Assembly: GCA_046484755.1 (NCBI GenBank)
Contig: JAWOII010000250.1
Coordinates: 1 to 28,195 of the forward strand
Direction: 5' to 3'
DNA from: Enhygromyxa sp.
Lineage (GTDB): Bacteria > Myxococcota_A > Polyangia > Nannocystales > Nannocystaceae
DNA length: 28,195 nucleotides
Part shown: piece after piece, positions 4,523-28,195 of the stretch
How positions within the stretch are numbered: the first letter of the stretch is position 1
How the letters are laid out: every line of letters starts with the position of its first letter
Notes under the pieces: model-generated
Database searches by the model: none
The model's input: the letters and a program-made list of their open reading frames with translations, nothing else
What the model was told of the DNA's origin: nothing
Made by a program: the position numbers and the translations under genes

Positions 4523-4837
4523 ATGCCCAAGCGCTCTCCGCCTGTCTTCCCGCGTGTCATGCGCCAGCTCGACGAGCTCGGCGCCCGGCTGCGCGCGGCG
4601 AGACTGCGACGGCGGATGACCCAAGCGACGCTCGCTGCTCGAGTCGACGTCTCGTTGCCCACCATCCGCAAGCTCGAGAAAGGCGACCCGACCACGAGCC
4701 TGGCGACGCTGGTGCGGGCGCTGCAGGTGCTGGGCCTGGAAAAGGACCTTGACCTGCTCGCCGCCAACGACAAGCTCGGCCGCGCGCTGCAGGACATTCA
4801 CCAGGTCGGTCCGCCGCGCGGTAAGAGGTCGTCATGA
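4523..4837 (+). CDS. hipB: XRE-family HTH transcriptional regulator, HipB-like antitoxin
   Basis: LRAARLRRRMTQATLAARVDVSLPTIRKLEKG is a Cro/C1-type HTH. Its TGA (4835-4837) overlaps the ATG of the hipA-like gene (4834-4836). Confidence 0.7.
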   Translation: MPKRSPPVFPRVMRQLDELGARLRAARLRRRMTQATLAARVDVSLPTIRKLEKGDPTTSLATLVRALQVLGLEKDLDLLAANDKLGRALQDIHQVGPPRGKRSS

Positions 4838-6087
4838 GCGAGCGAGTCGATGTCGTGCTCGACGACGCGTCGCTCGGACCGACGACGAAGATCGGCACGC
4901 TCCACCGAGAGCGCGGCCGCTCGGCCGAGGTCATCAGCTTCGCTTATGAAGACGACTATCTCGCGCTACCGGGGGCCGTGGCGATCGATCCCGAGCTGCA
5001 GTTGCATCCCGGTCGTATGTACCCAACCCAGCAAGGTGGGCTGTTCGGGATCTTCCGTGACACCGCGCCGGACCGCTGGGGACGGGTGCTGATGGAGCGG
5101 CGAGAGGCCCTGGACGCGAAGCAGCAAAAGCGACGGCGGCGGCGGCTCTCGGAGTGGGATTTTCTGGTCGGCGTCAGCGATGTCGCGCGCCTTGGGGCCT
5201 TGCGACTGTGTGAGACCGAGCCGCCGCATCGATACCTCGACGACCGCGACCACACGGTCCCGCCCTTCGCTCGTCTGCGCGAACTCGAGGCTATCGCGCG
5301 CGAACTCAGCCGCGAGGGTGTCGAAGAGCGCCCGGAGTATGCCCAGTGGTTGGCGCAGCTCATCCAGCCGGGAACGAGCTTGGGCGGCGCACGACCCAAG
5401 GCGACCTTTTGTGGGGAGGACGGGCAGTTGTGGCTCGCCAAGTTCCCTGCCCACGACGATCGACGCGACGTGGGAGCTTGGGAGCACTTCGCCGGCCAAC
5501 TGGCGCTCACAGCCGGAATCCACATGCCGGAGTCCCGGCTGCTCGATCTTGGCAGCCGATACCGAACCCACGCCCTCAAGCGCTTCGATCGTGAGCCGGG
5601 CTCGCGGCGCCTCTACGCCTCGGCGATGACGCTCTTGGAGTTGAGCGACGGTGCAGAAGGTAGCTACCTCGATATCGCCGAGGCGATCCAGCTGCATGGC
5701 GATCCTGCTCTCATCGCTGCGGATCTCGAGCAGCTATACGGCCGCATCGTGTTCTCCATCCTGATTAGCAACCGCGACGATCACTTCCGCAACCACGGCT
5801 TCTTGCGGACCGCCGGCGGCTGGCGACTCTCGCCGGCCTTCGACATCAACCCCAACCCCGACAAGCTCGAGCACGCGCTGGCGATCGATGAAGCCGACCC
5901 GAGCCCATCGATCGCCAACCTGCACGCGACCCATCGCTATTATCGCCTCACCGACACCCAGGCCTCGAATATCGAGGTCCAGGTACGGGCGGCCGTTCGA
6001 GGGTGGCGGCAGATCGCCAGCAAGGTCGGTGTCTCCGCGGTCGAGCAGCGGCTGCTCGCGGACATCGTCGATCCCGACGCAGACTGA
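4834..6087 (+). CDS. hipA: HipA-family serine/threonine kinase toxin
   Basis: HipA N-terminal coupling region, P-loop-like GTSLGGARPKATF, and catalytic motif ISNRDDHFRNHGFL (HipA D-x-H-x-x-N type). RBS aagagg 5 nt upstream; translationally coupled to hipB. Confidence 0.8.
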   Translation: MSERVDVVLDDASLGPTTKIGTLHRERGRSAEVISFAYEDDYLALPGAVAIDPELQLHPGRMYPTQQGGLFGIFRDTAPDRWGRVLMERREALDAKQQKRRRRRLSEWDFLVGVSDVARLGALRLCETEPPHRYLDDRDHTVPPFARLRELEAIARELSREGVEERPEYAQWLAQLIQPGTSLGGARPKATFCGEDGQLWLAKFPAHDDRRDVGAWEHFAGQLALTAGIHMPESRLLDLGSRYRTHALKRFDREPGSRRLYASAMTLLELSDGAEGSYLDIAEAIQLHGDPALIAADLEQLYGRIVFSILISNRDDHFRNHGFLRTAGGWRLSPAFDINPNPDKLEHALAIDEADPSPSIANLHATHRYYRLTDTQASNIEVQVRAAVRGWRQIASKVGVSAVEQRLLADIVDPDAD

Positions 6088-6162
6088 GTCGCGCTCAGCT
6101 GCCGCTCTTGCGCCCTGCTGCGCGAGCCGCTTTGGCGTCGACGATGAAGACTGTTTAGAGCG

Positions 6163-6198
6163 TCCGGCGCGGAATCGACCAGAGGCCGCCCCGCGCCG
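6163..6198. terminator. possible bidirectional terminator hairpin between convergent hipA and the MVP-like gene
   Basis: ccggcgcgg (6163-6171) and ccgcgccgg (6190-6198) form a 9-bp GC stem around an 18-nt loop. The long loop makes this weak. Confidence 0.15.
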
Positions 6199-6216
6199 GT
6201 CTCGGTGCGCGACGGC

Positions 6217-8706
6217 TCAGTCGACCTTCACCGGCCGCCCGTTGGCCCCCTCGCCTCCCACTGCGATCTCCGGCCCGAGCACCTGCGCGAGCTTGGTGCC
6301 GCGCAGCAACCTCGCGAGCACCTCCGAGACGCTCTCGCCCCCGAGGATCGCCAGCGGGGCCATGCTCTCGGCCATCTTCTCGGCCAGGGCTTTATCACCG
6401 AACGCTTGCAACGCGGCGATCAGATCGGGCGAGACGGCGCCGGCCTTGTCGACGACGGCCTTGACCTCGGCCTCGAGCTCGCGCAGGCGCTGGGCGAGCT
6501 CGCGATCGCCGAGCTCGAGGTCGGTCTCGGCGGTCCGGCGGCGGCGAGCGAGCTTGGCGTCGTGGACGGCGTCGGTGGTGGCTTGCTCGGCTTGCTCGGC
6601 GTCGAGTCGACGCTTGCGGCTGTCGACCTCGGCGTCGATCTTGGCGACGTCGTAGTCGTGGACCGCGTCGATCTCGGCCCGCTGCAAGGCCAGCTGCTTT
6701 TGCCTGGTCGCGGCCTCGATCGCGGCGATCTCTTGCTTGATGGTCTCGCGCTCGCGGGTCTGATCGAGCCGGCGGCGCTCAGCCTCGAGGGTCAGGTTTT
6801 GCTGGACCACGGCGTGCTGGGTGTCGATCAGCAGCCGGGCGATCTCGGCGTCGCCGATCTCGACGTCGAGGACCTCGACGTCATAGACCCGCATGCCGTT
6901 CTCCTCGAAGTTTCGGCCGGGGCGCTTGCCGTCCTCGTTTTGGGCGCCGAGGACCACGTCGCGGACGACCGAGACCACCTGCGGGTGGAAGCTCTGGACC
7001 GTGCGCTGCTTGATCGCGCCGCGCAGCAGCGAGCGGAGGTGCTCGGTCAGAAATTTTACGTAGTTCTCGACGTTGAACCAGCGCTGCGGATCGCCCTCGA
7101 AGTTGACCCGGTAAGACAGCCGGATCCGGACCGAGACCAGGTCCGCGGTCTCGGCCTCGACGAGATCCGAGACCTTGTTGTAGAGCACCCGCAGGTAGGC
7201 GGTGCGCTCGAGCTGGGCGTCGGACTTGGGCGTGCCGGTCGAGAGCTCGGCCGGCTGCAGGACCTCGTCGTACTCGAGCATGTGGGTGGCCGGGCCGACC
7301 ACGACCTTGCGCTCGCCGGTCTTGCTGACCACCAGCACCGCGTAGCCGGTCCAGACCGCGATGCACACGGCCCCGTCGTAGCGGGTGTCGAGCACGATCG
7401 TCCGCGGCTGGGTGAAGCTCTGCCCGCGGTTGAAGTCGTCGCCCGCGTAAGTCGAGCTGGCCTCCTCCTCCTGCTCCTGCTTCTTCTTCTTCCTGGCCCG
7501 CTCCTGCTTGTGCGCGCGAAGCTCGAGCTCCTCGTTGGCGATGTAGTCGCTCTTGCCCTCCTGCAGGGCGGCCAGCCGGCGGTTGTGCTCGAGCGCGTCT
7601 TGGTTGCCGGGGAACCACAGCTTGACGTGGCGGGGATCGAGGATCCGCCGGACGATCACCTCGCGCCGGGGATCGGGCAGGAAGATCGAGGGGCCGCGCT
7701 CGAGCCGAATCTGCCCGGTGTGGCGGTCGAGCACGTAGCGGGCCTCGCCGGCCGGAATCGCGACCCCGTAGCTGATGGTCTGCTGCCCGTACTTGATGAT
7801 CGCGTGCTCGGGCCGGGGGAAGTAGATCATTTGATCCTTCCCGGTGATGAACAGCTCGTCGCCGACGTTGTAGCTGTTGCCCTTGCCGTCCTCGTAGGGG
7901 GCGATGACCTTGATGTAGATGCCGCTGTTTTCGTTGAGCTCGATCGCCCGGAATTTGTTGGCGCCCTCGCGCTCGACGAAGGTCTCGGTCGGCTGCGGGA
8001 ACACGACCGCGGGGCCCTGCAAATAGGTCTTGTTGCCGTTTTCGTCGAGCAGGATGCAGTACTCGAGGCGCTCGAGGGTCACGGCCTCGCGCACGAACTC
8101 GCCGTCGTCGTTGGGGACGACCTCGATGCCGGTCGAGGGGATGTAGAAGCTGACGTCGGTGCCCTTGATGACCAGCTGCTTGCCCATGGTCAGGTCGGGC
8201 GGCTCGACCTCGAGCGCGCCCTCTTCGGCCGAGCCCTGCCGCTTGATCACCGCCCGCTCCCAGTTGGCCTTGGCGGCTTCTTCGTCGTAGACGCGGACGA
8301 TCAGGTACTGATTGGAGCGCAGGTTGTGGCCCTGGATGACCCGGACCATCTGCCCGGGCCACAGCGCGAAGGCGGCCGGCCCGGGGAGGTTGACCTTGCG
8401 GCCGATCTCGAGCTCGATGAGGTTGTTGATCGCCCCGGTCTTGGGGTGCGAGCTGTCCTTGGCGGGGTTCTTGAGGACCAGGTACCAGCCGACCGGCGCG
8501 ACCGCGAAGCTGCGGGTTGCGGCCTCGAGCGAGCACTTCTCGAAGCGCTTGTTCTCGGCGTTGAAGACGACCGGCTGATCGGTGTTGGCGAGGCTGGTCT
8601 TGTACGGACCGATGTAGGCGTTGATGTTGCCCTTGGTCTCGTCGGCGATGAAGGCGTACTCGTTGGGGGCGAGGATCAGGTCTCGTTCACGGGCGCGGTC
8701 GGACAT
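6217..8706 (-). CDS. major vault protein (MVP)-like protein: vault repeats, SPFH-like shoulder, long coiled-coil cap-helix; 829 aa
   Basis: N-terminus [39 protein letters not shown] matches the MVP repeat-1 pattern [63 protein letters not shown] parallels MVP [32 protein letters not shown]. Shoulder segment [35 protein letters not shown] parallels MVP [35 protein letters not shown]. A long Ala/Glu/Arg-rich coiled coil (about 200 aa) at the C-terminus resembles the MVP cap-helix. Contains a K/E-rich low-complexity insert encoded by the ctcctcctc/cttcttctt tract at 7462-7497. RBS ggag 9 nt upstream of the ATG (8704-8706). Confidence 0.7.
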   Translation of the reverse strand: [829 protein letters not shown]

Positions 8707-8772
8707 GCGGGAGGCTCCTGCGAGAAGACAGGATACGGGTTTGCCGAGCCGGCGGATCGGCGAAGCGGTGAT

Positions 8773-10074
8773 TCAATGAAACAGCAGGTGAATGCCCGCA
8801 TCCGAGCTGTAGACGACCTTGGAGGAGTGCGGGTGGCTGGCTTCGAGGGCGACGAAGTGGAGATCGGGGGCCGCGACCCCGAGCTTGCGGGTCCACAGCT
8901 CCTGGAAGTTGATGAAGCGCTCGTAGCGAGAGCGACCCTCGAGCTGGGACCTGCAGTTCTCGGGGAAGGTGTTCTCGTGATCGGTGGCGGCCTGGATGTG
9001 CCAGACCTCGCGCGAGGCGTACATGAGGATCAGCGCCTGGCGAGCGGCGCGGTTCCAGATCGCGCTGCCGGGGTTGCGCAGGGCCTTGCGGGCGAGGGCC
9101 CGATCATGGGGGCGCAGGTAGTGGTCGATCGCGTAGTTGGCCGCGCGGACCGGACGATCGCTCTTGGCCTTGCTCAGATTGCCGAGGCCGTAGCCCCAGT
9201 CATCCCAGCCCTTGCAGCCTTGCGGGTTGATCCACCGCCAGCTTTGGATGTCGCCGCGCCCGGGTCCGGGCGGGACCGAGCCGCGCCCGGGCGGGGTCTT
9301 GCGCTGAGGAAGCGGAAAGGCATAGCTGCCGCCGTTGGCCGGCATGTACCGGACCCGGATGCCGGCAGCGGCGAGCTGCTCGTGCACGCCGACGCCCATC
9401 CACACGTAGCGGTGCACGAACTGGCCGCCGGCGGAGTGGCCAGTGATGACGATGTCCTCGAGGTTGGGGAACTTGACGACCGCGGCCCGGAGGAACTCGT
9501 CGAGGACGTCGAATGACGAGACCGACTCGGCCTTGACGATGCCTGACATCGCCTCGCGGTACTCGGCGACGGTGCCGAGCGGATAGGAGGCGCGAGTCCA
9601 GCTCCACACCCGCGGATCGTCGTCGGTGTAGGGCTGCCACTCGTCGGTCCGCTGGAAGGTCGGGGCGATGATCGCGTAGCGCTCGGGGTCGACGCTGGGG
9701 TCGAGCTTCTGGGCCCGGCGCAGGGCGTAGAGGACGTTGCGCAGCTGATAGAGGCCAGGCGGCTCGTCGAGCCGGGCGAGGAGGTCGGCGTCGGGGCCGT
9801 AGACGCCGTGGACGACGAAGATCATCCGCGTGACCTTGGGATCGGGGCGGCCGTCGAGCTCGCTGCCGGGGTCGCAGTGGTAAGGCATGCGCCCCTTGAA
9901 GTGCTCGGCGTGGGCCCAGCGACGAAACTTGAGGTAGGTCTGCACGCACTCGTCGGGCTGACAGCGCTGCAGCTCCTCGACGGGCTTGTAGCGAGGCGGT
10001 CCGGCGTTGCGCCCGGCGCAGCCGAGCAGCGTCCAGAGCAGGCACCAAAGCAGCCACTGCGAGCGGCCGAGCAT
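8773..10074 (-). CDS. lipoprotein, alpha/beta-hydrolase fold (GHSAGG nucleophile elbow)
   Basis: Start chosen at [19 protein letters not shown], a signal peptide with lipobox LLGC. The longer track ORF adds an Arg-rich extension that overlaps fdh[15 protein letters not shown] is a G-x-S-x-G motif. Lies 66 bp upstream of the MVP-like gene on the same strand, so it may be co-transcribed. Confidence 0.55.
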
Positions 10075-10098
10075 CGCGGCGAGTGTACACTCGCCTCG

Positions 10099-10955
<857 letters not shown>

Positions 10956-10959
<4 letters not shown>

Positions 10960-11462
10960 CGCGAGGGGCCTGGATCGCGGCTGCGCTGCTGCTCGGATCG
11001 GCGAGCGGGTGCTGGCCCGGTCGCTGCGGCGGCGCCCTGCGGGGCACGCCGATGGTCGCGTTCACGGGCGAGCACGCGCCCTGTACCGAGGGGCCGAGCT
11101 GCGCCGAGCTCATCTCGCCCGAGCGGGGCTTTCGCCAAAAGGGTGACTACGCGCGGGTCGACGATCCCTCGGTCTTGCTGGCCGAGTCGGGCGTCGACTC
11201 GCGGACTTGGTTTCTGGTCGACGAGCGCGACGCGATCGTGCCGAGCCGCGTCGAGGCGATCCAGCACAGCTCAGCCCACAGCTGCGCGTCGGCGGTAGGC
11301 TTCGAGCTCCGGCCCGACGCGCCGCTCGAGCCGGGGGTCTATCGCCTGGTGTTGCTGGTCGAGCGGGTCCGCTGGCCGCTGCTGCGCGGGAGCGTGGCGC
11401 TGTCGAGCTGGGCGGGCGAGCCGGCGCTCGTGCAGTACTACCGGGTCGAGGCGCCAGGGTAG
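10956..11462 (+). CDS. small hypothetical lipoprotein (168 aa), translationally coupled to fdhD
   Basis: ATG 10956-10958 overlaps the fdhD TGA 10957-10959. N-terminus [19 protein letters not shown] is a signal peptide with lipobox. It is the 3' third of track ORF 10083..11462. Confidence 0.45.
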
Positions 11463-11484
11463 GCTGAACTTCAGGCGTTTCTTG

Positions 11485-11503
11485 GCGAGAGCTTTGCTCT
11501 CGT
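11485..11503 (+). terminator. short hairpin gcgagagc-ttt-gctctcgt between the fdhD operon and the low-GC islet
   Basis: 7-8 bp stem with a triloop, 23 nt after the lipoprotein stop and 16 nt before the GTPase ATG. It could be a terminator or a translational element. No U-tract. Confidence 0.15.
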
Positions 11504-11518
11504 GCGAACCTGTGGCCC

Positions 11519-12346
11519 ATGTCCGATCTCGCTGTCAAGGGGTTGGTTCTCGGCACGGAGGTGGTGAAGTACGTCCGCGACCACCCCCAGACGGTCAACG
11601 CGACGTGGGACATGATCTCGGCGCTGCTCAAGAAGAGAAAGCGGGTGGTCGTCACCGGGATGAAGTGGGCCGGCAAGACGGTCCTCTGCGATTTCCTCAC
11701 GGGGAAGGGATACGAGGAGGGCTACGTGCCACCCGACTCGTCAGTCCGACAGGAGGACGCCCGGATGCCGCGTCCGAAAGGACGCGAGGGCTTCGTGCTC
11801 TCGACGATTCCTGGCGACGACTCGCTCCCCCGGCGAAGCTCCCTGGACGAGCTGCTTGGTGGCGGCGAGACCATCACTGGAGTGATGCACGTGGTGTCGA
11901 ATGGCTTCGTCGCGCCGCGCTCCGGCGTCGCACGCGAGCTCATGGAGCGAGACCACGCCACCGTGGACGAACTCCGAACGGCGATGCTCGATGCCGAGGT
12001 TGAAAACCTGGGAGAGACGCTGCGCGCACTCGAAGCTTACTGGCTGCGGACGAGGCGCCCGCTGTGGCTGCTGATCGTGCTCACCAAGACCGACCTCTGG
12101 TCGCTGACTCAGCGCGAGGTCTTCGAGCATTACACGCGCAAATCCAGGTTTGCGCGTGACCTTTCGGCGCTCCGAGCGCGCATCGGCTCGCTGAATCTCG
12201 ATCTACGGTGGACAGTGGCTGCTACAGTGCAGGAAGACTTCGTCTGGACCAAACGACAGGCGAGGGTGGAGTCCGCGCTCTCCAAGGAACAACGAGATGC
12301 CTACGTACGCCTACTCAGGGCTCAGCTCTACGAGCTCGTCGGTTAA
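11519..12346 (+). CDS. P-loop NTPase, GTPase-like (Walker A GMKWAGKT; [NT]KxD-like LTKTD)
   Basis: VVVTGMKWAGKTVLCDF is a Walker A/G1 motif. WLLIVLTKTDLW is a hydrophobic strand followed by a TKxD G4-like motif. The gene has lower GC (about 62%) than its flanks (about 72%). Confidence 0.55.
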   Translation: MSDLAVKGLVLGTEVVKYVRDHPQTVNATWDMISALLKKRKRVVVTGMKWAGKTVLCDFLTGKGYEEGYVPPDSSVRQEDARMPRPKGREGFVLSTIPGDDSLPRRSSLDELLGGGETITGVMHVVSNGFVAPRSGVARELMERDHATVDELRTAMLDAEVENLGETLRALEAYWLRTRRPLWLLIVLTKTDLWSLTQREVFEHYTRKSRFARDLSALRARIGSLNLDLRWTVAATVQEDFVWTKRQARVESALSKEQRDAYVRLLRAQLYELVG

Positions 12347-12812
12347 GCCGCAAGACGAGCGCCTCGACGCTCGTGAAGGCCCCGACGACCTTCTCGACGA
12401 TGGTCGCTCAGCGGCTTTGCAGCTTGCCGATTTCGAGAAAGTCGTCGATCGGCTACTTGGAGAACACGAAAAGTTCGAAGCACAGCGCGTTCGAGCATAC
12501 ACGCAGTTGGCATATGCCGTTGCCGTCATCTTCTTCTTGACTATCGCGTTTGTATTCTCGACTCGCACATCCACCGCAAACACCGCGCACCTCACCATTG
12601 CCAGTTTCGTGCTGGCCCTTGGGTCTATCATTCTAATGGTCTGGACTGTGTTCCGAAGCTTCCGGAACCAACAGCGCACCCACGAAGAACTGGCCGAACT
12701 CGTGCGAGAAATCGCACCAGCCTTCATGCCCAAATTATCTCCCATCCGCCGCGCCGAAATCAAGATCCGACTCTCCAACATCGGAATCTACGACCCCCTG
12801 AAATACCGCTGA
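12297..12812 (+). CDS. small membrane protein: cytoplasmic N-terminal region plus 2 predicted TM helices
   Basis: Hydrophobic segments AYAVAVIFFLTIAFVF and LTIASFVLALGSIILMVWTVF. GC is only about 53-55%. The ATG at 12297 overlaps the end of the GTPase gene by 50 nt in another frame, so the true start may be an in-frame non-ATG start downstream. Confidence 0.45.
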   Translation: MPTYAYSGLSSTSSSVKPQDERLDAREGPDDLLDDGRSAALQLADFEKVVDRLLGEHEKFEAQRVRAYTQLAYAVAVIFFLTIAFVFSTRTSTANTAHLTIASFVLALGSIILMVWTVFRSFRNQQRTHEELAELVREIAPAFMPKLSPIRRAEIKIRLSNIGIYDPLKYR

Positions 12813-12814
12813 CG

Positions 12815-13576
12815 TCAATCCACGACCACGAAGCTCGTGAACCGCTCGGTCACCCGCAGCTGCCCCTCGGGAGCATCCTTCACGCCGCCTTCGTGGCCGA
12901 AGTTCACGACCTGCCGGCGCTCGATCGGCAGCCCGCGCTCGTCGAGCCACAAGGTCGCGCGCCCGACCGGGCGCTTGCTCACGGTGATCTGAAACTCGAG
13001 CGGCCGGGCCTCGCCGGTGCCGAACACCTCGGGCGGACCGAGCTGCGGCTCGATGACCTGGATCCACTCGGCCACGCCGCCGTCGGCGTGATCGGGCGGG
13101 CGGCCGGCGACCAGCATCGCGAGGTTGTGGAGCAAGCCCTGGCGGGTGAGGCCGACGACCACGGCCTCGATCAGCGCGGGCGGGCGCGGGCCGGTCCAGC
13201 GCGACTCGCCGGCGCCGAGGACCTCGAGGGTCTGGGCGTCGCCGCGCAGCTCGAGCTGCTGGGGCTCACCGTTGAACTCACCGCTGACGGTCCACGCCAG
13301 CGCGGCGTCGCGCTCCCAGACCAGCTTGCCCTCGAGCTGCGACACCACCGCGCCCTCGGACTCGATCACGAACGCGATCTCGACCCGCGCGGCGGCTTGC
13401 AGGCGCCGCTCGAGATCGGTCAGGGTCCGCACCGCCCAGGCGTCGGCTTGCTTGGGCTCGGCTTCGGCTTCGACGGGCGTGGCCGGCTCGCCCGAGAGGG
13501 TCTCGCCCGAGGTCGCGCACGCGAGCGCGAGCGTGGTCGCAGCGAGCAGGGCCAGCGTCACTGATCGGCGGAGCAT
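12815..13576 (-). CDS. hypothetical lipoprotein (253 aa)
   Basis: Internal ATG (13574-13576) of the 1003-aa track ORF. N-terminus MLRRSVTLALLAATTLALAC is a signal peptide with lipobox LALAC. The remainder of that ORF is antisense to gene 13667..15727. Its stop at 12815-12817 lies 2 nt from the convergent stop at 12812. Confidence 0.55.
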   Translation of the reverse strand: MLRRSVTLALLAATTLALACATSGETLSGEPATPVEAEAEPKQADAWAVRTLTDLERRLQAAARVEIAFVIESEGAVVSQLEGKLVWERDAALAWTVSGEFNGEPQQLELRGDAQTLEVLGAGESRWTGPRPPALIEAVVVGLTRQGLLHNLAMLVAGRPPDHADGGVAEWIQVIEPQLGPPEVFGTGEARPLEFQITVSKRPVGRATLWLDERGLPIERRQVVNFGHEGGVKDAPEGQLRVTERFTSFVVVD

Positions 13577-13666
13577 CGCCCGAATGATCCCCGGGCGGTC
13601 ACCGTTGTACAACCCGCCCGTCCGGCAATCGCTTCGTGTATCCTCGGCCGAACCCTGGAGCTCACG

Positions 13667-15727
13667 ATGAAGCGCTTGACCCTGTTGATGACCCCTGCTT
13701 TGGCCTTGTCTCTCGCCGCGACGACCGGCTGCAACGACGACGCGCCCGCTGACGAGAACACCAGCGAGACCGGTGACGGCGACGGTGACGGTGACGGCGA
13801 CGGCGACGGTGACGGCGACGGCGACGGTGACGGTGACGGTGACGGTGACGGCGACGGCGAGGAAGACCCGCCGGCCGAGGTCTCGTGGCCGACCCTCGAT
13901 TGCGACCCGCTGGTGCCGGACTACTGCCTGTTCCCCTACCCCAGCAACGTGTTCACGGCCGACGATCCCGGCTCGCCCACCGGCCGCCGCCTGGCCCTGA
14001 GCAGCGAGCGGCTGCCGAGCAAGAACAACAACGAGATGGACGCGACGGTCTTCAACGAGGCCGACGGCTTCTCGGCAGGACTGGCGGCGATGACCTACCT
14101 GCCGGGCGCGACCACCTCCGGGCTGCCGACCTGGCAGGACCTCGACGCCTCGCTCGCCGCCGACTCGCCGACCGTGATGATCAACGCCGAGACCGGCGAG
14201 CGCGTGCCTCACTTCTCGGAGATCGACGTCTCGCTGGCCGGGGCCAACAAGAACGCGCTGATGGTCCGCCCGGTCGTTCGGCTCGACGACAACACCCGCT
14301 ACATCGTCGCGATCCGCAACGTCGTCGACCAAAACGGCGAGGTGATCCCGGCCAGCCCCGGGTTCGCGGCGCTGCGCGACCTGACCCCGAGCGACGACCA
14401 GAGCATCGAGGAGCGGCGCCCGCTCTACACCGACATCTTCGCGCGCCTCGCCGACGCCGGGGTCGAGCGCGGCTCGCTGCAGATCGCCTGGGACTTCACG
14501 ACCGCGAGCCTCGACAACAACACCGGGGATCTGCTCCACATGCGCGACGACGCGCTGTCCATGTACACGCCCGAGGCGGGACCGACCTTCACGATCACCA
14601 CGGTCGACGAGGACTGGAACACCGACCACATCGCCTACCGGATCGAGGGCATGATCGAGGTCCCGCTCTACCTCGATGATCCCGGCCCCGGCGGGCACAT
14701 CGTCTATGGTGACGACGGGCTGCCCGAGTACCAGGGCACCGCCGAGTTCCCGTTTTACATGCTGATCCCCAACAGCGCCCTGGATACTCCCGCGCAGCTG
14801 TTGCAGTACGGCCACGGCCTGCTCGGCAGCGCGTCGGAGATGTACACCGGCCACATGCGCTCGTTCATCGACGAGTACAACTACATCCTGTTTGCGGTCG
14901 ACTGGATCGGGATGTCGCAGTACGACGCCCTCAACATCGCGTCGATGCTCACCACCGGCGAGATGCACCGCTTCGAGGACGTCAGCGATCGCCTCCAGCA
15001 GGGCCTGGTCAATTTCGTGGTCGCGACCCGGATGATGAAGACCAGCATGGCCGACCATCCGGACTACGGCTCGTTCATCGATCCCAGCGCCGCCCACTAC
15101 CTCGGCATCAGCCAAGGCGGGATCTTCGGCGGGACCTTCATGGCGATCTCGCAGGACGTCGAGCGCGGCTGCCTTGGCGTGTACGGCCAGCCCTACAACA
15201 TCCTGCTCAACCGCAGCGTCGACTTCGATCAGTACTTCGCGCTGCTCCAGCAGGGCTTTAGCGACTCGCGCGACCTGCAGATGATCCTCGCGCTGATCCA
15301 GGGCCTGTGGGACCACGCCGAGCCCAACGGCTACACCCACAAGATCAGCCAGGACATGTTCCCTGACACGCCCGAGCACGCGGTGCTGATGCGCGCGGCG
15401 CTTGGCGATCACCAGGTCACCACCCTCGGCGCTCACATCGGCGCCCGGGCGGTCGGGGCCAAGCACCTCGACACCGGCGTCCGCGAGGTCTGGGGGCTCG
15501 AGCAAGTCAGCGATCAAAACGAAGGCAGCACCTACGTCGAGTGGGACTTCGGCCTGCCCGAGGATCCGCTCGAGAACGTCCCGCAGGAGGCCTGCGCAGA
15601 TCCCCACGGCAAGCTCCGCCACCTCGAGGAGGCGCGGATGCAGCTCGACACCTTCTTCCAGACCGGGGTCGTGCAAAACTACTGCACCAACGGGACCTGC
15701 TCGTTCCCCGACATGAGCGGGTGCTGA
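13667..15727 (+). CDS. secreted lipoprotein, alpha/beta hydrolase (GISQGG nucleophile motif) with an N-terminal (Gly-Asp)n linker
   Basis: MKRLTLLMTPALALSLAATTGC is a signal peptide with lipobox. G-x-S-x-G appears in HYLGISQGGIFGG. RBS ggag 7 nt upstream of the ATG. The (GD)n tract is encoded by a hexanucleotide repeat. Confidence 0.65.
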   Translation: MKRLTLLMTPALALSLAATTGCNDDAPADENTSETGDGDGDGDGDGDGDGDGDGDGDGDGDGDGEEDPPAEVSWPTLDCDPLVPDYCLFPYPSNVFTADDPGSPTGRRLALSSERLPSKNNNEMDATVFNEADGFSAGLAAMTYLPGATTSGLPTWQDLDASLAADSPTVMINAETGERVPHFSEIDVSLAGANKNALMVRPVVRLDDNTRYIVAIRNVVDQNGEVIPASPGFAALRDLTPSDDQSIEERRPLYTDIFARLADAGVERGSLQIAWDFTTASLDNNTGDLLHMRDDALSMYTPEAGPTFTITTVDEDWNTDHIAYRIEGMIEVPLYLDDPGPGGHIVYGDDGLPEYQGTAEFPFYMLIPNSALDTPAQLLQYGHGLLGSASEMYTGHMRSFIDEYNYILFAVDWIGMSQYDALNIASMLTTGEMHRFEDVSDRLQQGLVNFVVATRMMKTSMADHPDYGSFIDPSAAHYLGISQGGIFGGTFMAISQDVERGCLGVYGQPYNILLNRSVDFDQYFALLQQGFSDSRDLQMILALIQGLWDHAEPNGYTHKISQDMFPDTPEHAVLMRAALGDHQVTTLGAHIGARAVGAKHLDTGVREVWGLEQVSDQNEGSTYVEWDFGLPEDPLENVPQEACADPHGKLRHLEEARMQLDTFFQTGVVQNYCTNGTCSFPDMSGC
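13772..13859 (+). repeat. in-frame hexanucleotide microsatellite (ggYgac)n, about 14.5 units, encoding (Gly-Asp)n
   Basis: ggtgacggcgacggtgacggtgacggcgac... read directly from the sequence. It generates the spurious VTVTVT ORF (13773..14000) in another frame and VAVAVT on the minus strand. Confidence 0.85.
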
Positions 15728-15902
15728 GCTGCTGAGCTCTCGCTCGAGAGGCTGCGGCCGCGCTGCTTGGCGCGGCCGCAGTCGCGAGCGGAGCTCGCCA
15801 ATCGCAAGGACGGGGATCGTCCCCACCCGTCGAGCTTGGATTGCCGCGTTGCCTCACCGATCGAGGACGAGTTCGCTCGCCCTGGGCCGGATCCGGCGGT
15901 CT

Positions 15903-18035
<2,133 letters not shown>

Positions 18036-18045
18036 GCGTCGCCGG

Positions 18046-18067
18046 GCGCCGAGCCCTTGCTCGGCGC
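18046..18067 (+). terminator. perfect 9-bp GC hairpin (gcgccgagc-cctt-gctcggcgc) 11 nt after the metalloprotease stop, followed by tandem gctcggc heptamers
   Basis: Stem 18046-18054 and 18059-18067 with loop cctt. No U-tract, which is common in high-GC genomes. The direct repeat gctcggc x3-4 continues to about 18084. Confidence 0.35.
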
Positions 18068-18147
18068 TCGGCGCTCGGCGCTCGCGCGTCGCGGCCTGGA
18101 ACGGAGAATGCACGTGTTCATGGTGACGAAGCCCGAAAGGACCAATC

Positions 18148-18669
18148 ATGAGCAGCGAACAAAGCGCCGAAGTCCAGTCCGCCGAAAAACTCCGTAAGCT
18201 CGTGCGCGAGTTCGACGACGCGATGCTCGTCAGCCTCGACGGCGGCGGCCAGCTGCACGGCCGTCCCATGCGGATCGTCGGTCACCAGCAAGACGGCGCC
18301 GACGATCTATGGTTTTTCACCGGAATCAACGCCGCCAAGCTCGCCGAGATGCGCCAAAACCCGCAGGTCGCGGTGACCATGGCAGACGGCAAGCGCTTCG
18401 TGGCGATCAGCGGCGAGGCCCGCATAGTCGTCGATCCGGCCAAGATCCAGAGCCTGTGGAACGAGAGCTGGAAGCTGTGGTTCCCCGACGGGCCCACGGG
18501 CGGCGGGATCGCGCTGATCCAGGTGCTGCCGCAGCACGCGGAGTACTGGGATCAGTCCTTCCCGGCGGGGATCCGCTTCGCGCTCGAGGCCGCCAAGGCC
18601 TGGGTCGCCAACGAGGCGATCGAGGAGCCCGACCGGCCCGAGCAGCACGCGAAAATTCAACTCTCCTGA
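18148..18669 (+). CDS. pyridoxamine 5'-phosphate oxidase-like FMN-binding protein (general stress protein 26 family)
   Basis: LVREFDDAMLVSLDGGGQLHGRPMRIV...QNPQVAVTMADGKRFVAISGEARIV...LWFPDGPTGGGIALIQV is the PNPOx-like split-barrel pattern. RBS gaaagg upstream. Confidence 0.6.
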   Translation: MSSEQSAEVQSAEKLRKLVREFDDAMLVSLDGGGQLHGRPMRIVGHQQDGADDLWFFTGINAAKLAEMRQNPQVAVTMADGKRFVAISGEARIVVDPAKIQSLWNESWKLWFPDGPTGGGIALIQVLPQHAEYWDQSFPAGIRFALEAAKAWVANEAIEEPDRPEQHAKIQLS

Positions 18670-18759
18670 GCCCGGGGTCACTCATTCCCGAGCGTGCTTG
18701 CGATCGGGGGGGCACGGATCCGAAGCTCGCACGTCTACCAGCGCGGCGAGGCCAGGCTC

Positions 18760-20103
18760 ATGCATCGCACCGCGCGTGTTTCCAACAAGACCCCTCCTCG
18801 TGGCGTGCCGCTGCTCGGCCACCTACCCCGGCTGCTCGCCGATCCCTGCGCGCTCGCGGTCGAGCTGATGCGCTTGGGTGACGAGGTCGTCCCCCTGCGG
18901 CTGGGCCCGACCACGGTCTATTTCGTCCACCACCCCGACCATCTCCAGCACATCATGCTGGACAATCACCAAAACTACAGCAAGGGCCCGCTGTTCGCCC
19001 GCGCCGACATCCTGGTCGGCAACGGGCTGGTGGTCAGCCACGGCGAGGCGTGGCGACGGCAGCGGCGGCTGATGGCGCCTCCCTTCGCGCGCAAGCGGCT
19101 GCGCGAGCTGGTGCCGGTCATCGCCAGGGTCGTCGAGGCGCGCCTGGCCCCCTGGCGCCAAGGCGGGGTGTTCGAGATGTGGCGCGAGATGACCGGCATC
19201 ACCATGAGCGCGCTGCTCGAGAGCATCTTTGCGACCAGCATGGACGAGGGCATGGTTCGTCGCTTCGTCAACGCCTTCGACACCATCGTCGATCACGTCG
19301 GGATCCGGGCGCTGGCCTTCTTCCTGCCCGAGCGCTTCCCCCTGCCCGGGCGGGCGGCGGCGCTGGCTGCCCGCGAGGAGCTGCACCGGATCATCGAGGA
19401 CATCGTCGCCGAGCGGCGCCGCTCGGGCAGCGAGGGCAACGACCTGCTCGGCCTGCTGCTCGCCGCCCGCGACGAGGGCGGCGAGGGCATGAGCGACGAG
19501 CAGCTCCGCGACGAGGTCAAGACCGCCGTGTTCGCGGGCTACGACTCCACGGCCACCGGCCTCGCCTTCACCCTCTACCTGCTCGCAGCCCACCCCGAGT
19601 CGGCCCGGCGGGCCCGCGAGCAGATCATGGAGGTCATGCCCGAGGGCCTCCCCGACGCCGAGCAAGTCGAGCAGCTCGATTACCTGCGCCGGGTGTTTTG
19701 CGACGCGCTGCGCCTGTACCCGCCGCTGGCCTTTCACCCGCGCATGGCCCTGGCCGACGACCAGATCGGCGGTCAGCGGATCCCCGCGGGGGCGACCTTG
19801 CTCTACAGCAATTACGCGCCCGGGCGAAACCCGGCATTTTGGCAGTATCCCGACTCTTTTTATCCGGATCACTTCCTGCCCGAGGCGGTCGCCCAGCGCC
19901 ACCGCTTCGCCTATCAGCCCTTCGCCGTCGGTCCACGCAGCTGCATCGGCATGGGCATGGCCGTGCTCGAGGCGCAGATCGTCCTGGCGATGATCCTGCG
20001 GGACTACGAGCTGGTCCGACCGGTGAACACGCCGGTGATGCAAGGGCGCATGGGCACCTCGCGGGCCAAGGGCGGGATCTGGATCGAGCTGCGGCCGCGC
20101 TGA
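18760..20103 (+). CDS. cytochrome P450 monooxygenase
   Basis: Heme-binding loop FAVGPRSCIGMGMA (F-x-x-G-x-R-x-C-x-G), I-helix AGYDSTATG, and E-x-x-R in DALRLYPP. Start taken at ATG 18760 (MHRTARV...) rather than the non-ATG start at 18694. Confidence 0.85.
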   Translation: MHRTARVSNKTPPRGVPLLGHLPRLLADPCALAVELMRLGDEVVPLRLGPTTVYFVHHPDHLQHIMLDNHQNYSKGPLFARADILVGNGLVVSHGEAWRRQRRLMAPPFARKRLRELVPVIARVVEARLAPWRQGGVFEMWREMTGITMSALLESIFATSMDEGMVRRFVNAFDTIVDHVGIRALAFFLPERFPLPGRAAALAAREELHRIIEDIVAERRRSGSEGNDLLGLLLAARDEGGEGMSDEQLRDEVKTAVFAGYDSTATGLAFTLYLLAAHPESARRAREQIMEVMPEGLPDAEQVEQLDYLRRVFCDALRLYPPLAFHPRMALADDQIGGQRIPAGATLLYSNYAPGRNPAFWQYPDSFYPDHFLPEAVAQRHRFAYQPFAVGPRSCIGMGMAVLEAQIVLAMILRDYELVRPVNTPVMQGRMGTSRAKGGIWIELRPR

Positions 20104-25913: not shown

Positions 25914-27233
25914 GTGACCGCCCCGCCCAGCGAGCCCGAGCCGTCGGCCGCGACCCGAGTGATCGATGCGCTCGTGGCCGGCGGCCAGCCGGTCGACGAA
26001 GGCCGCTTCAGCCTCGACGTGGCCGCGGCCGCAGACAAGCTCGACAACTACCAACATGCTGACCGCAGCGCATACCTAGTCCCGCTCGTCGAGGGCGCAC
26101 GAGGCCTGGACGCCCGTCGGATCACCCTGACCACCCACGGCGAGGATCTCTCGATCTCGATGGAGGGTGTGGAGCTGCCCGATCCGCTGCGATTTTTGAG
26201 CAATCCGTTCGGGCTGATGCGGGGGGCCGACCTCGAGCGCAAGGACTGGGCGCTCGGGCGCCTCGGCGTCGCCCTGCACATGGCGCTGGGTCACGCTCGC
26301 GTCGCGCGGGTCGCGGTCAGCTACTCGGACCTCGCGAGCATGCTCGTGGCCGAGTATCGCGGCGACGGCAGCGTTCGACTCGCCCGCCGAGAGCCCGAGG
26401 TCACGGGCGAGCTCCGAATCATCATCGACCGGCCCTGGATCGAGCGCGTGTCGCTGCGCGGAGCCTGGCACGCCGAAATTGAGGTGCTTCGCGCCGCAAT
26501 CCAATATTCTCGCTTCGCCCTGTCCGTCGATGGCGAGTCGCTAGCGGGTCATTCCCGCAAATGGGCCTATGTCACCCGCGGCTCGGGACCGGGCTATTCT
26601 TACGAAGCTGGCCTCGAGCCGCACGAAGACCCGTCTGTGCTCGAACTGTGGAGCGAAGGGCTTTGCGTCGAGACGCTTCCGGGACCGGGGCTCGGCTTTC
26701 GAGCCGCCATCCACCTGACGATGCCTCGCCGCGATCTCTCGCAGATGAAGATCGTCCACGATGAGACCTTCAATACAGCCCTGGCGGCCGTCGAACACAG
26801 CTATCACGAGGCGCTAGAGCGGCTCGCCAGGCACGACGCGAGCTGGACCGGCGCAGATCGCCCGAGCCACTGGCCGAGGGCCCGTGTCGACCGTCTGCTC
26901 GGACGACACGAACGCGAGCGCCTGCCCGAGGAGACGGTTCGGCACAGGATACGCGCCAACCGCAAGAATATAGTGTCCGCGTTGGTGTTCGGGTGCGTGT
27001 TTGGCATCATCACAGGTTCGCTGGGATTCGCATTGCTCGTCGGTCCAAGCCTCTTCGGCGGGCTATGGTTTTTGGTCCTCATGCTCGTCGGCAGCGGCGC
27101 CGCGGGTCGGGAACTGGCCAACATCCTCGTGACCGACAAGCGAACGAAGATCGTGATTCAGGGCCTGTGGCTGGTCCTGATTGCGGTGATTGCTGGTTAC
27201 ATCGGACTCGAGATTATTTCGGGCATTCTCTAG
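25914..27233 (+). CDS. hypothetical protein with a C-terminal membrane anchor (about 3 TM helices)
   Basis: 439-aa ORF with GTG start and good coding bias. The C-terminus (IVSALVFGCVFGIITGSLGFALLVG, LWFLVLMLVGSGAAG, IQGLWLVLIAVIAGYIGLEII) is strongly hydrophobic. No family recognised. Confidence 0.5.
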   Translation: MTAPPSEPEPSAATRVIDALVAGGQPVDEGRFSLDVAAAADKLDNYQHADRSAYLVPLVEGARGLDARRITLTTHGEDLSISMEGVELPDPLRFLSNPFGLMRGADLERKDWALGRLGVALHMALGHARVARVAVSYSDLASMLVAEYRGDGSVRLARREPEVTGELRIIIDRPWIERVSLRGAWHAEIEVLRAAIQYSRFALSVDGESLAGHSRKWAYVTRGSGPGYSYEAGLEPHEDPSVLELWSEGLCVETLPGPGLGFRAAIHLTMPRRDLSQMKIVHDETFNTALAAVEHSYHEALERLARHDASWTGADRPSHWPRARVDRLLGRHERERLPEETVRHRIRANRKNIVSALVFGCVFGIITGSLGFALLVGPSLFGGLWFLVLMLVGSGAAGRELANILVTDKRTKIVIQGLWLVLIAVIAGYIGLEIISGIL

Positions 27234-28195
27234 TGTCCTGAGTCCGTAGTAAGCAAGAAAAGTCACCCGCGCCCGAAGAGGTCCAGCACGCGCTGGCAGT
27301 GGCGGGTGACGGAGGCGATGATCTGGTCGGCGGTCTTGTGCCAGACGAACGGCTGAGGGTCGGAGTTGTGGGCGTCGAGATACTCACGGATCGCTTGCTC
27401 GAGTTCCTCGGTGCTGCGGTGGACACCCTGCTTGATCGCTCGCTCGGTCAACAGGGCGAACCATCGCTCGACCTGGTTGAGCCAGGAGCTGTATGTCGGG
27501 GTGAAGTGAAAGACAAACCGTGGGTGCTTCTTCAGCCAGCGCTGGATCTCGGGAGCGCTGTGCGTGGCGTAGTTGTCGAGGATCAGGTGGACCTCGAGGT
27601 CCTTCGGAACGGCCTTGTCGATGGTGTTGAGGAACTTGCGAAATTCGACGGCTCGGTGCCTGCGGTGGCACTCGCCGATGACCTCGCCGGTGGCAACATC
27701 GAGTGCCGCGAACAGCGTCGTGGTTCCATGACGGAGGTACTGCGGCGTCCGCCGTTTCGGCTGACCGAACAACATCGGGGTTACCGGCTGGCCCCGCTCA
27801 AGCGCCTGAAGCTGCGACTTCTCGTCCACGCACAGCACCATCGCGTTGTCGGGCGGGTTCATGTAGAGCCCGACGACGTCGCGGACCTTTTCAACGAAGA
27901 AGTCGTCGTTGCTCAGCCTGAAGGTCTTCTGCCGATGCGGCTTGAGTTCGAAGGCTCGCCAGACCCGCGACACGCTCGACTGGCTCACGCCCACCTTCCT
28001 GGCAAGCTGCCGGGTCGTCCAGTGAGTCTGACCTGGAGGCGTTGTCTCGAGCGTCGTCCGGATGAGTTCCTCGACGGTCTCGTCGGAAAGCTTCCGGCTC
28101 GTCCTTGGACGAGGAAGATCACTGAGTCCATCGAGCCCGTCGGTGGCGAAGCGCTTGCGCCACTTGGACACGGTGGTCGGTGTGACACCGACTTC
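27234..28195 (-). mobile_element. partial IS630-family insertion sequence (right end plus most of the transposase)
   Basis: The transposase stop at 27263 is only 30 bp from the stop of gene 25914..27233, so the IS terminus and TA target must lie in 27234-27262. The other end is outside the window. Confidence 0.55.
27263..28195 (-). CDS. IS630-family (Tc1/mariner-like) DDE transposase, 5'-truncated by the window edge
   Basis: HLILDNYATHSAPEIQRWL and FTPTYSSWLNQVERWF are typical IS630 DDE-region motifs. The reading frame continues upstream of the track's M through EVGVTPTTVSKWRKRF (the HTH) to the window end, so the N-terminus lies outside the window. Confidence 0.8.
   Translation of the reverse strand, partial: EVGVTPTTVSKWRKRFATDGLDGLSDLPRPRTSRKLSDETVEELIRTTLETTPPGQTHWTTRQLARKVGVSQSSVSRVWRAFELKPHRQKTFRLSNDDFFVEKVRDVVGLYMNPPDNAMVLCVDEKSQLQALERGQPVTPMLFGQPKRRTPQYLRHGTTTLFAALDVATGEVIGECHRRHRAVEFRKFLNTIDKAVPKDLEVHLILDNYATHSAPEIQRWLKKHPRFVFHFTPTYSSWLNQVERWFALLTERAIKQGVHRSTEELEQAIREYLDAHNSDPQPFVWHKTADQIIASVTRHCQRVLDLFGRG

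Follow-up and report, generated by a model that had tools for sequence, protein, structure and literature searches.

A mobile two-gene insert in Enhygromyxa pairs a small GTPase of an uncharacterised family with a two-helix membrane protein

Where does a short islet of atypical base composition in the genome of Enhygromyxa come from, and what could be the use of a GTPase-like protein that is encoded together with a small membrane protein? The question is raised by a contig of 28,195 bp from a metagenome-assembled genome (MAG) of an Enhygromyxa sp.; this contig was analyzed over its full length and is referred to below as the window. The islet consists of two adjacent genes, here called A and B, whose products have the deposited entries R6X02_32530 and R6X02_32535, both annotated as hypothetical proteins. 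An earlier reading of the letters only (the sequence-only reading) had described the islet as a recent foreign acquisition encoding a pair of proteins that it did not recognise. We found that it is an accessory, horizontally spread two-gene cassette, which in an Enhygromyxa lineage was inserted right at the meeting point of two convergent chromosomal genes. A is predicted to encode a GTP-binding switch of the cytoplasm, from a small-GTPase family not described before, and B, judged by the conservation of the gene pair, its dedicated and obligately co-encoded partner with two transmembrane (TM) helices. A role in biological conflict, in which B would be a membrane-acting effector, is the function that we tentatively favor.

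The evidence for an insertion comes from the comparison of the window with two related contigs. On the first, metagenome contig L042, the genes for a 501-aa protein, FdhD and the upstream lipoprotein are followed directly by the convergent lipoprotein gene and the gene for a 687-aa protein; A and B are lacking, and the stop codons of the two convergent flanking genes are only 1 nt apart. On this basis, and in line with the GC profile, the borders of the insert were set at 11463-12814 (1352 bp, plus strand). It thus starts right after the stop codon TAG of the upstream lipoprotein gene (11460-11462) and runs up to the stop codon of the convergent lipoprotein gene on the minus strand (12815-12817), which, as had been observed before, lies 2 nt from the stop codon of B. 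The second contig, L001 (a JGI contig of 8 kb), has the gene order of the window, namely FdhD, lipoprotein, A, B, convergent lipoprotein and 687-aa protein. Considering that the flanking proteins of the window are 77-88% identical to those of L042 and 70-82% to those of L001, the empty site is found in a genome that is at least as close as the one with the occupied site. The pair is therefore an accessory, dispensable insert, and the gain or loss of the cassette took place exactly where the two convergent genes meet.

The same borders enclose a clear anomaly in base composition. The GC content of the insert is 60.6%, against 67.7% for the whole contig, which makes it the lowest-GC stretch of its length in the window (z = -3.7 relative to all other 1352-bp windows of the contig, with a mean of 68.0%, a standard deviation of 2.0 and a minimum of 62.1). 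The sharp drop over the two genes that had been reported, including the value of 53.3% for 12541-12660, could thus be reproduced; the proposed chromosomal background of 72% could not, 72-73% being the value of the adjacent flanks (73.4% and 71.5% over 1 kb on either side). A codon profile indicated that the anomaly is carried mainly by B, since the GC content at third codon positions (GC3) of this gene is 0.65 (z = -4.9 versus the 22 other genes of the contig), whereas that of A, at 0.79 (z = -1.8), lies at the low edge of the range of 0.79-0.94 that these genes span. The second-lowest GC stretch of the contig, at ~26600-27900 (about 62%), comprises the 3' part of the gene at 25914-27233 and the gene at 27263-28171, with GC3 values of 0.79-0.83.

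One could argue that the pair is native and that its low GC content follows from the amino-acid composition of a hydrophobic membrane protein or from the level of expression. The GC3 of A, within the native range, and the synteny with L001 would agree with this. Yet B has a GC3 and a four-fold-site GC of 0.65 where the flanking genes have 0.86-0.97, and these measures are independent of amino-acid content. The explanation is also contradicted by the empty site of L042 and by the presence of the same pair in Vibrio, Hymenobacter, Micromonospora, Planctomycetes, Acidobacteriota and others, and we consider it highly improbable.

The claim of a recent foreign origin has to be divided. The foreign or accessory nature is borne out by the empty site, by the fact that the pair is always more AT-rich than its host (see below) and by its occurrence on mobile elements, but recency is not, as L001 has the pair too, and in the identical position. 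The A proteins of the window and of L001 are 79% identical, like the flanking proteins, and the B proteins only about 51%; as A has diverged to the same extent as the flanks and B even more, the insert predates the split between the two lineages. L001 shares the 50-nt overlap of the two reading frames as well as the GC trough, and its leader upstream of A is 151 nt long and could not be aligned by eye with the 56-nt leader of the window. The GC3 and four-fold-site GC of B are ~0.65 in L001 too (1943-2473), and 58-68% of the conserved four-fold sites of B differ between the two copies in what is a small sample of 40-50 sites. That the GC content was kept at ~0.65 despite apparently saturated synonymous sites argues against the low GC of B being no more than a sign of a recent acquisition, and it may be maintained, for instance as a rare-codon throttle on the production of a membrane protein.

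The organization of the insert is compact. A leader of 56 nt (11463..11518) precedes gene A (11519..12346), which encodes a soluble protein of 275 amino acids, and gene B (12297..12812) encodes a membrane protein of 171 amino acids, all on the plus strand. As had been noted, the reading frames overlap, by 50 nt (12297..12346), and a Shine-Dalgarno-like element AAGGAA is found at ~12282-12287 on the same strand. Going by the overlapping frames, B is probably translationally coupled to A. No sigma-70-like site was found on the plus strand of the leader. Searches for a tRNA gene at the islet, for terminal repeats or a target duplication at its borders and for Rfam elements there were all negative, and a promoter/terminator search at the borders was uninformative. 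In agreement with the sequence-only reading, a scan of ten genes lying within 4834-20103 turned up no integrase or insertion-sequence family.

To which family does A belong? Word-indexed protein searches recovered only 3-6 relatives of A or B, which had suggested an orphan pair. That idea was overturned when 1.84 billion cluster representatives were searched exhaustively with a profile, which yielded 679 relatives of A at E<=1e-3 and 149 at E<=1e-30; among the best 150 listed, most were ~270 amino acids long. An alignment of 96 members was used to define the conserved elements. The G1 element or P-loop GMKWAGKT (residues 47-54; 11657..11680) contains G47, G52 and K53, which are invariant in all 96 members, and the G4 element TKTD (residues 189-192; 12083..12094) corresponds to a family consensus xKxD, which is NKxD in many members, with K190 in 96% and an invariant D192. 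The Walker A and TKxD motifs recognised earlier are therefore real. The segment PPDSSVRQE (11729..11755), with an invariant Ser75 and a near-invariant Glu79, is a candidate switch I in view of its place between G1 and G3. The G3-like element IPGD (11807..11818; family consensus [VT][VI]PGQ) is not a DxxG followed by a catalytic Gln: where DxxG has the Walker-B Asp, the family has Val or Thr throughout, and the window copy, which reads TIPGD, has an Asp where the family has a Gln after PG. Further invariant or near-invariant positions are Pro98-Gly99, the GVIHVVxNGF strand, Arg134, Glu160, Trp183, K190xD192L and an EDFxW motif.

An AlphaFold2 model based on the 96-sequence alignment (predicted local distance difference test score, pLDDT, 91.4; predicted template modeling score, pTM, 0.85) was used instead of one made from 4 sequences (pLDDT 67). 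According to this model, A confidently adopts a small-GTPase fold and has the G domain of a TRAFAC-class, Ras-superfamily-like small GTPase, closest to SR-beta, Rag and Arf. The dynamin-like affiliation proposed earlier is not supported; the best structural matches were SR-beta, Rag, Arf/Arl and Sar1, all membrane-associated switches. Beyond the core G domain the model contains two helices at the N-terminus, a hairpin and a helix at the C-terminus, and a long inserted helix (149-178) in which Glu160 is invariant. A itself lacks a hydrophobic segment (highest 19-residue hydropathy 0.96). Sequence databases were of little help: A had no significant match in Pfam, NCBIfam or PADLOC, and a search of PDB sequences gave matches at the level of the P-loop only. 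The best PADLOC match of the family, mad8 at 2e-6 in 27 of the 96 members, is consistent with P-loop similarity alone. With its P-loop and guanine-specificity motifs intact, A is predicted to bind GTP.

A shares the P-loop and xKxD motifs with SR-beta, Arf, Sar1 and Rag, as well as the 'GVIHVV' strand after switch II, and the helical N-terminal extension before its P-loop aligns with that of Sar1. The Pfam SRPRB model weakly matched 24 of the 96 family members (11.6 bits for the window copy, against a cut-off of 25). A differs from the group in being ~100 residues longer, in having the extensions listed above and in lacking the Walker-B Asp. SR-beta moreover has its own N-terminal TM anchor and an SRX-domain partner, neither of which is found with A; its partner is a two-TM hairpin and not an SRX/longin or roadblock domain protein. 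The loss of the G3 Asp is not unique to this family, as MglA is described as lacking the canonical Asp and having Thr in its place (PMC3000849). MglA (Thr) and the A family (Val or Thr, xPGQ) have this in common, and both are bacterial single-domain Ras-like GTPases. However, A has different extensions and a TM partner, MglA was not among its top structural matches, and no MglB/roadblock (LC7) partner was found among the neighbors in the window or those of the relatives. The MglA and Rup groups covered by a survey of prokaryotic Ras-like GTPases have partners other than B (PMC4316618).

The second protein, B, is predicted to be an N-in/C-in hairpin, which agrees with the small two-TM protein described before. 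Its plan is conserved in the family: an N-terminal cytoplasmic helix (12423..12479, family consensus ..LLxLAEELQEK.E), two TM helices with Arg-rich cytoplasmic ends, assigned by hydropathy to residues ~71-88 (12507..12560) and ~99-119 (12591..12653, followed by an Arg-rich cytoplasmic stretch), and a C-terminal motif, ELAELVREI...RRAEIKIRLSNIGIY in the window (12687..12791, all on the plus strand) and ALxxVVxLLRE...ERAEFRIRLARFDIG as family consensus. The C-terminal motif is the best-conserved part of B, with A153, R158 and L159 nearly invariant. Comparison with Pfam, NCBIfam and PDB sequences gave no consistent match. The NCBIfam model SLATT_3 scored 17.2 bits against a cut-off of 45 (E = 0.004); in 12 members of the B family SLATT_1 was matched by two and SLATT_3 by one, at E>=0.004, and there was no match to a Pfam SLATT model. 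Within PADLOC, B matched PycTM at E = 0.005, driven by the TM segments, and a 4TM effector at E = 0.015, neither of which is significant. Matches to Pfam '8xMP' and other membrane families were inconsistent across the family and were discarded as driven by TM composition.

Are A and B a functional unit? Related loci were collected using a 12-sequence subset of the A alignment. Outside an actinobacterial branch, a B-type gene of 140-180 codons directly followed A in all 18 independent loci examined, including one in which the two are fused, and either overlapped A by 1-68 nt or was separated from it by a gap of <=14 nt. Besides the window and L001, these loci include L002, L004/L005, L006 (Acidobacteriota), L007 (Byssovorax), L008 (Planctomycetaceae), L009 (Micromonospora), L040 (a Hymenobacter plasmid), L043-45 (Vibrio), L046, L047/48, L049 and L051. 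In L011 (Armatimonadota) a run of N leaves B partial, in L039 the gene is truncated at the end of the contig, and in L050 it is present though missed by the gene caller; for one further contig a 144-aa gene overlapping A is listed, the DNA of which was not readable. Over 11 pairs the similarity of A and that of B covary (r = 0.80-0.88), which shows that the two travel together. In L010, a single open reading frame of 360 codons combines the G domain with the two TM helices and C-terminal motif of B, and lacks the last helix of A and the first helix of B. As it looks like an internal deletion, this fusion can be taken only as weak 'Rosetta-stone' evidence, although it is compatible with a physical coupling of the two proteins. 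Thus the pair that had not been recognised is a real unit and indeed novel to the databases: A and B are adjacent in every locus examined outside the actinobacterial branch and neither matches a Pfam, NCBIfam or PADLOC family.

The actinobacterial branch is of a different nature. It comprises ~27 loci (L012-L038, L041; in Nocardioides, Terrabacter, Intrasporangium and on a Georgenia plasmid) that encode a relative of A of 268 amino acids with ~30% identity. These loci have a host-like GC content and no B gene within 6 kb, and for these reasons were rejected as examples of the same module; they may represent a resident, differently used relative.

The pair is scattered over many bacterial phyla; its contexts differ from locus to locus, and no third gene is conserved. 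In hosts ranging from 34% to 68% GC, it is more AT-rich than its surroundings at every locus, the actinobacterial branch apart. Several of the contexts are mobile or related to conflict. In Micromonospora the pair lies between integrase/GntR genes and RepSA, and is thus carried on an integrative conjugative element of the pSAM2 type; in Hymenobacter it is located on a 43-kb plasmid between transposase genes and near a DUF262 gene; and in Vibrio (L043 1531-9303; L044, L045) it is situated ~300 bp beyond an integrated filamentous prophage that is 92% identical to KSF-1, a phage whose own genome does not contain the pair. The fused pair of L010 (1-5462) lies together with a C5 cytosine methylase gene and an uncharacterised 348-aa gene between thiC and a duplicated 3' fragment of thiC, an arrangement that constitutes a small integrated island. 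A weak AbiEii-like fragment was seen after that island. In L006 (1-5912), the pair is adjoined by a divergently oriented MoxR-vWA-beta-propeller ternary conflict system (bpMoxR, bpX5 and bpX6 domains). A tRNA-Leu gene lies 2 kb downstream at that locus. Other contexts are ordinary, and include a cluster of the fatty-acid-synthase/aryl-polyene type (L046), glycosyltransferase genes (L050), an aminotransferase gene and a UbiE-type methyltransferase gene.

Such ordinary contexts raise the possibility that A is a regulatory switch recruited to the membrane for a purpose outside conflict, like envelope, secretion or polarity signaling, and that B is its anchor, its receptor, its guanine-nucleotide exchange factor or its GTPase-activating protein. 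SR-beta at the endoplasmic reticulum and Arf/Sar1 on membranes, which together with Rag are the top structural matches of A, provide an analogy. Many loci are housekeeping or related to lipids and the envelope, like those in L046 and L050 just mentioned, the pair in the window sits between two lipoprotein genes, and the actinobacterial branch has the host-like GC content of a resident gene. A regulatory switch of this kind would, on the other hand, hardly be expected to show presence/absence polymorphism between close relatives, to lack a third gene that is kept across contexts, to have an atypical composition in all its hosts and to occur on an integrative conjugative element and a plasmid. 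It is the chief rival of the role that we favor, but we judge it rather unlikely.

These same properties lead us to favor, with due reserve, a role in conflict, that is either defense of the abortive-infection type or addiction, in which B would be the effector that acts on the membrane, because the cassette is mobile, dispensable and compositionally foreign in all hosts, and sometimes shares an island with methylases or other conflict systems. A defense or abortive-infection function is suggested by context in a few loci only. One may imagine that the N- and C-terminal helices of B, on the cytoplasmic side, are the docking site of A, and that the nucleotide state of A controls the action of B in the membrane. 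In the case of defense, a trigger would flip the GTPase, upon which B would oligomerize and the membrane would be depolarized or permeabilized; in a closely related alternative the two would form an addiction (toxin-antitoxin-like) module. Selection to keep a potentially toxic membrane protein at a low level could then account for the persistently low GC3, above all of B.

Several observations weigh against a conflict role. PADLOC provides no match for A and for B only the TM-driven one to PycTM. With the Walker-B Asp lost family-wide and the catalytic Gln of G3 changed to Asp in the window copy, hydrolysis of GTP by A is no more than putative. Most contexts of the pair are ordinary metabolic neighborhoods, and in the window no defense genes adjoin it. 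The pair was absent from all 50,697 phage records searched and was not found in a pattern-based scan of IMG/VR. It is also rare on plasmids, given that A was present in 3 out of 72,556 plasmid records and the pair in one of these. Finally, the L010 fusion comes from a MAG and may have arisen by deletion, in which case it need not be functional.

Part of the conflict role that we favor overlaps with a narrower explanation, in which the cassette is purely selfish: B would be a small membrane toxin, comparable to a holin or a type-I toxin, A would neutralize it, and loss of the cassette would be deleterious, with no role against phages. The compact two-gene operon with overlapping reading frames, the solitary nature of a cassette without mobility genes of its own, and its presence on the integrative conjugative element and the plasmid are all in keeping with addiction, and so are the fast evolution of B and its lasting rare-codon-like composition. 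The HipA-type toxin module found 5.4 kb away in the window would indicate that such elements populate the region. But a close relative has a clean empty site, which shows that a genome can lack the cassette, or lose it and keep no trace, a GTPase of 275 amino acids would be an unusually elaborate antitoxin, and neither A nor B resembles a known toxin-antitoxin family. Pure addiction therefore seems unlikely to us. A more far-reaching version of the conflict role, which we put forward as speculation of doubtful standing, is that the pair represents a new and widespread immune or addiction system in which an SR-beta/Arf-like GTPase without Walker-B Asp directly gates a two-TM effector, with no cyclase, nuclease or other sensor, and in which rare-codon, AT-rich coding is selected to limit the toxic effector in every host.

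Pairs of a sensor or NTPase and a small TM effector are known among abortive-infection systems and include RexA/RexB of phage lambda, PycC/PycTM of Pycsar, CBASS with two-TM effectors and systems with SLATT effectors. The architecture of A/B is alike, with a cytoplasmic nucleotide-dependent component and a small multi-TM protein encoded in a compact mobile operon. The pair differs from these systems in that a cyclase or other generator of a nucleotide signal is absent and that B has helix motifs of its own at the N- and C-terminus; the matches of B to SLATT and PycTM were sub-threshold and inconsistent across the family. In logic, the nearest systems described are the 'GTPase-centric' conflict systems of the DO-GTPases (Kaur, Burroughs, Iyer and Aravind 2020; PMC7159879), mobile neighborhoods organized around a novel TRAFAC GTPase that often act on membranes and in some cases include a two-TM SLATT pore-forming effector. 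Those systems have a GAP1 partner with three globular domains, GASH or FNIII domains and a Walker-B Glu, and often contain paired GTPases with zinc ribbons (PMC7159879). A/B has neither GAP1 nor GASH/FNIII, B being the only conserved neighbor of A, and paired GTPases with zinc ribbons are absent as well; in place of the Walker-B Glu there is a Val or Thr, and an invariant Glu160 is found in the inserted helix. The Pfam models of the DO-GTPases were not among the matches of the A family. Our search of the literature retrieved no description of a defense system composed of a small GTPase and a two-TM protein or of this particular pair, and nothing relevant on 8xMP.

Some other genes in the window deserve mention. 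The conflict-type gene closest to the pair, 5.4 kb upstream, encodes a HipA-like serine/threonine kinase (4834-6087; HipA_C E = 2e-43, Couple_hipA), and is abutted upstream by a small open reading frame (4523-4837); the two (4523-6087) probably constitute a HipBA-type toxin-antitoxin module. On the minus strand, 6217-8706 encodes an 829-aa protein with MVP_shoulder (E = 3e-27) and Vault_3 domains, resembling the major vault protein, which is uncommon in bacteria. The lipoprotein gene at 13667-15727 contains a long (Gly-Asp)n run at ~13772-13858, just past the signal/lipobox, that is also present in the orthologs of L001 and L042.

The pair can be described as a cassette of a putative nucleotide switch and a putative membrane effector, built from two protein families for which there is no curated model. 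Whatever its function, it is a clean example of mobility in a cassette that has no recognisable mobility genes, with insertion right between two convergent stop codons, and of an AT bias that is independent of the host and is kept even after synonymous sites appear saturated. If it is a conflict system, a membrane effector switched by a small GTPase would be added to the mechanisms of bacterial defense and addiction, and a function would be assigned to a family of several hundred 50%-identity metagenome clusters, now annotated as 'hypothetical' or 'GTPase domain-containing protein' and lacking a Pfam, NCBIfam or PADLOC model. As the family is a bacterial one whose predicted structure is nearest to the SR-beta/Rag/Arf switches of eukaryotes and Asgard archaea, it is relevant to the question of how membrane-associated small GTPases evolved.

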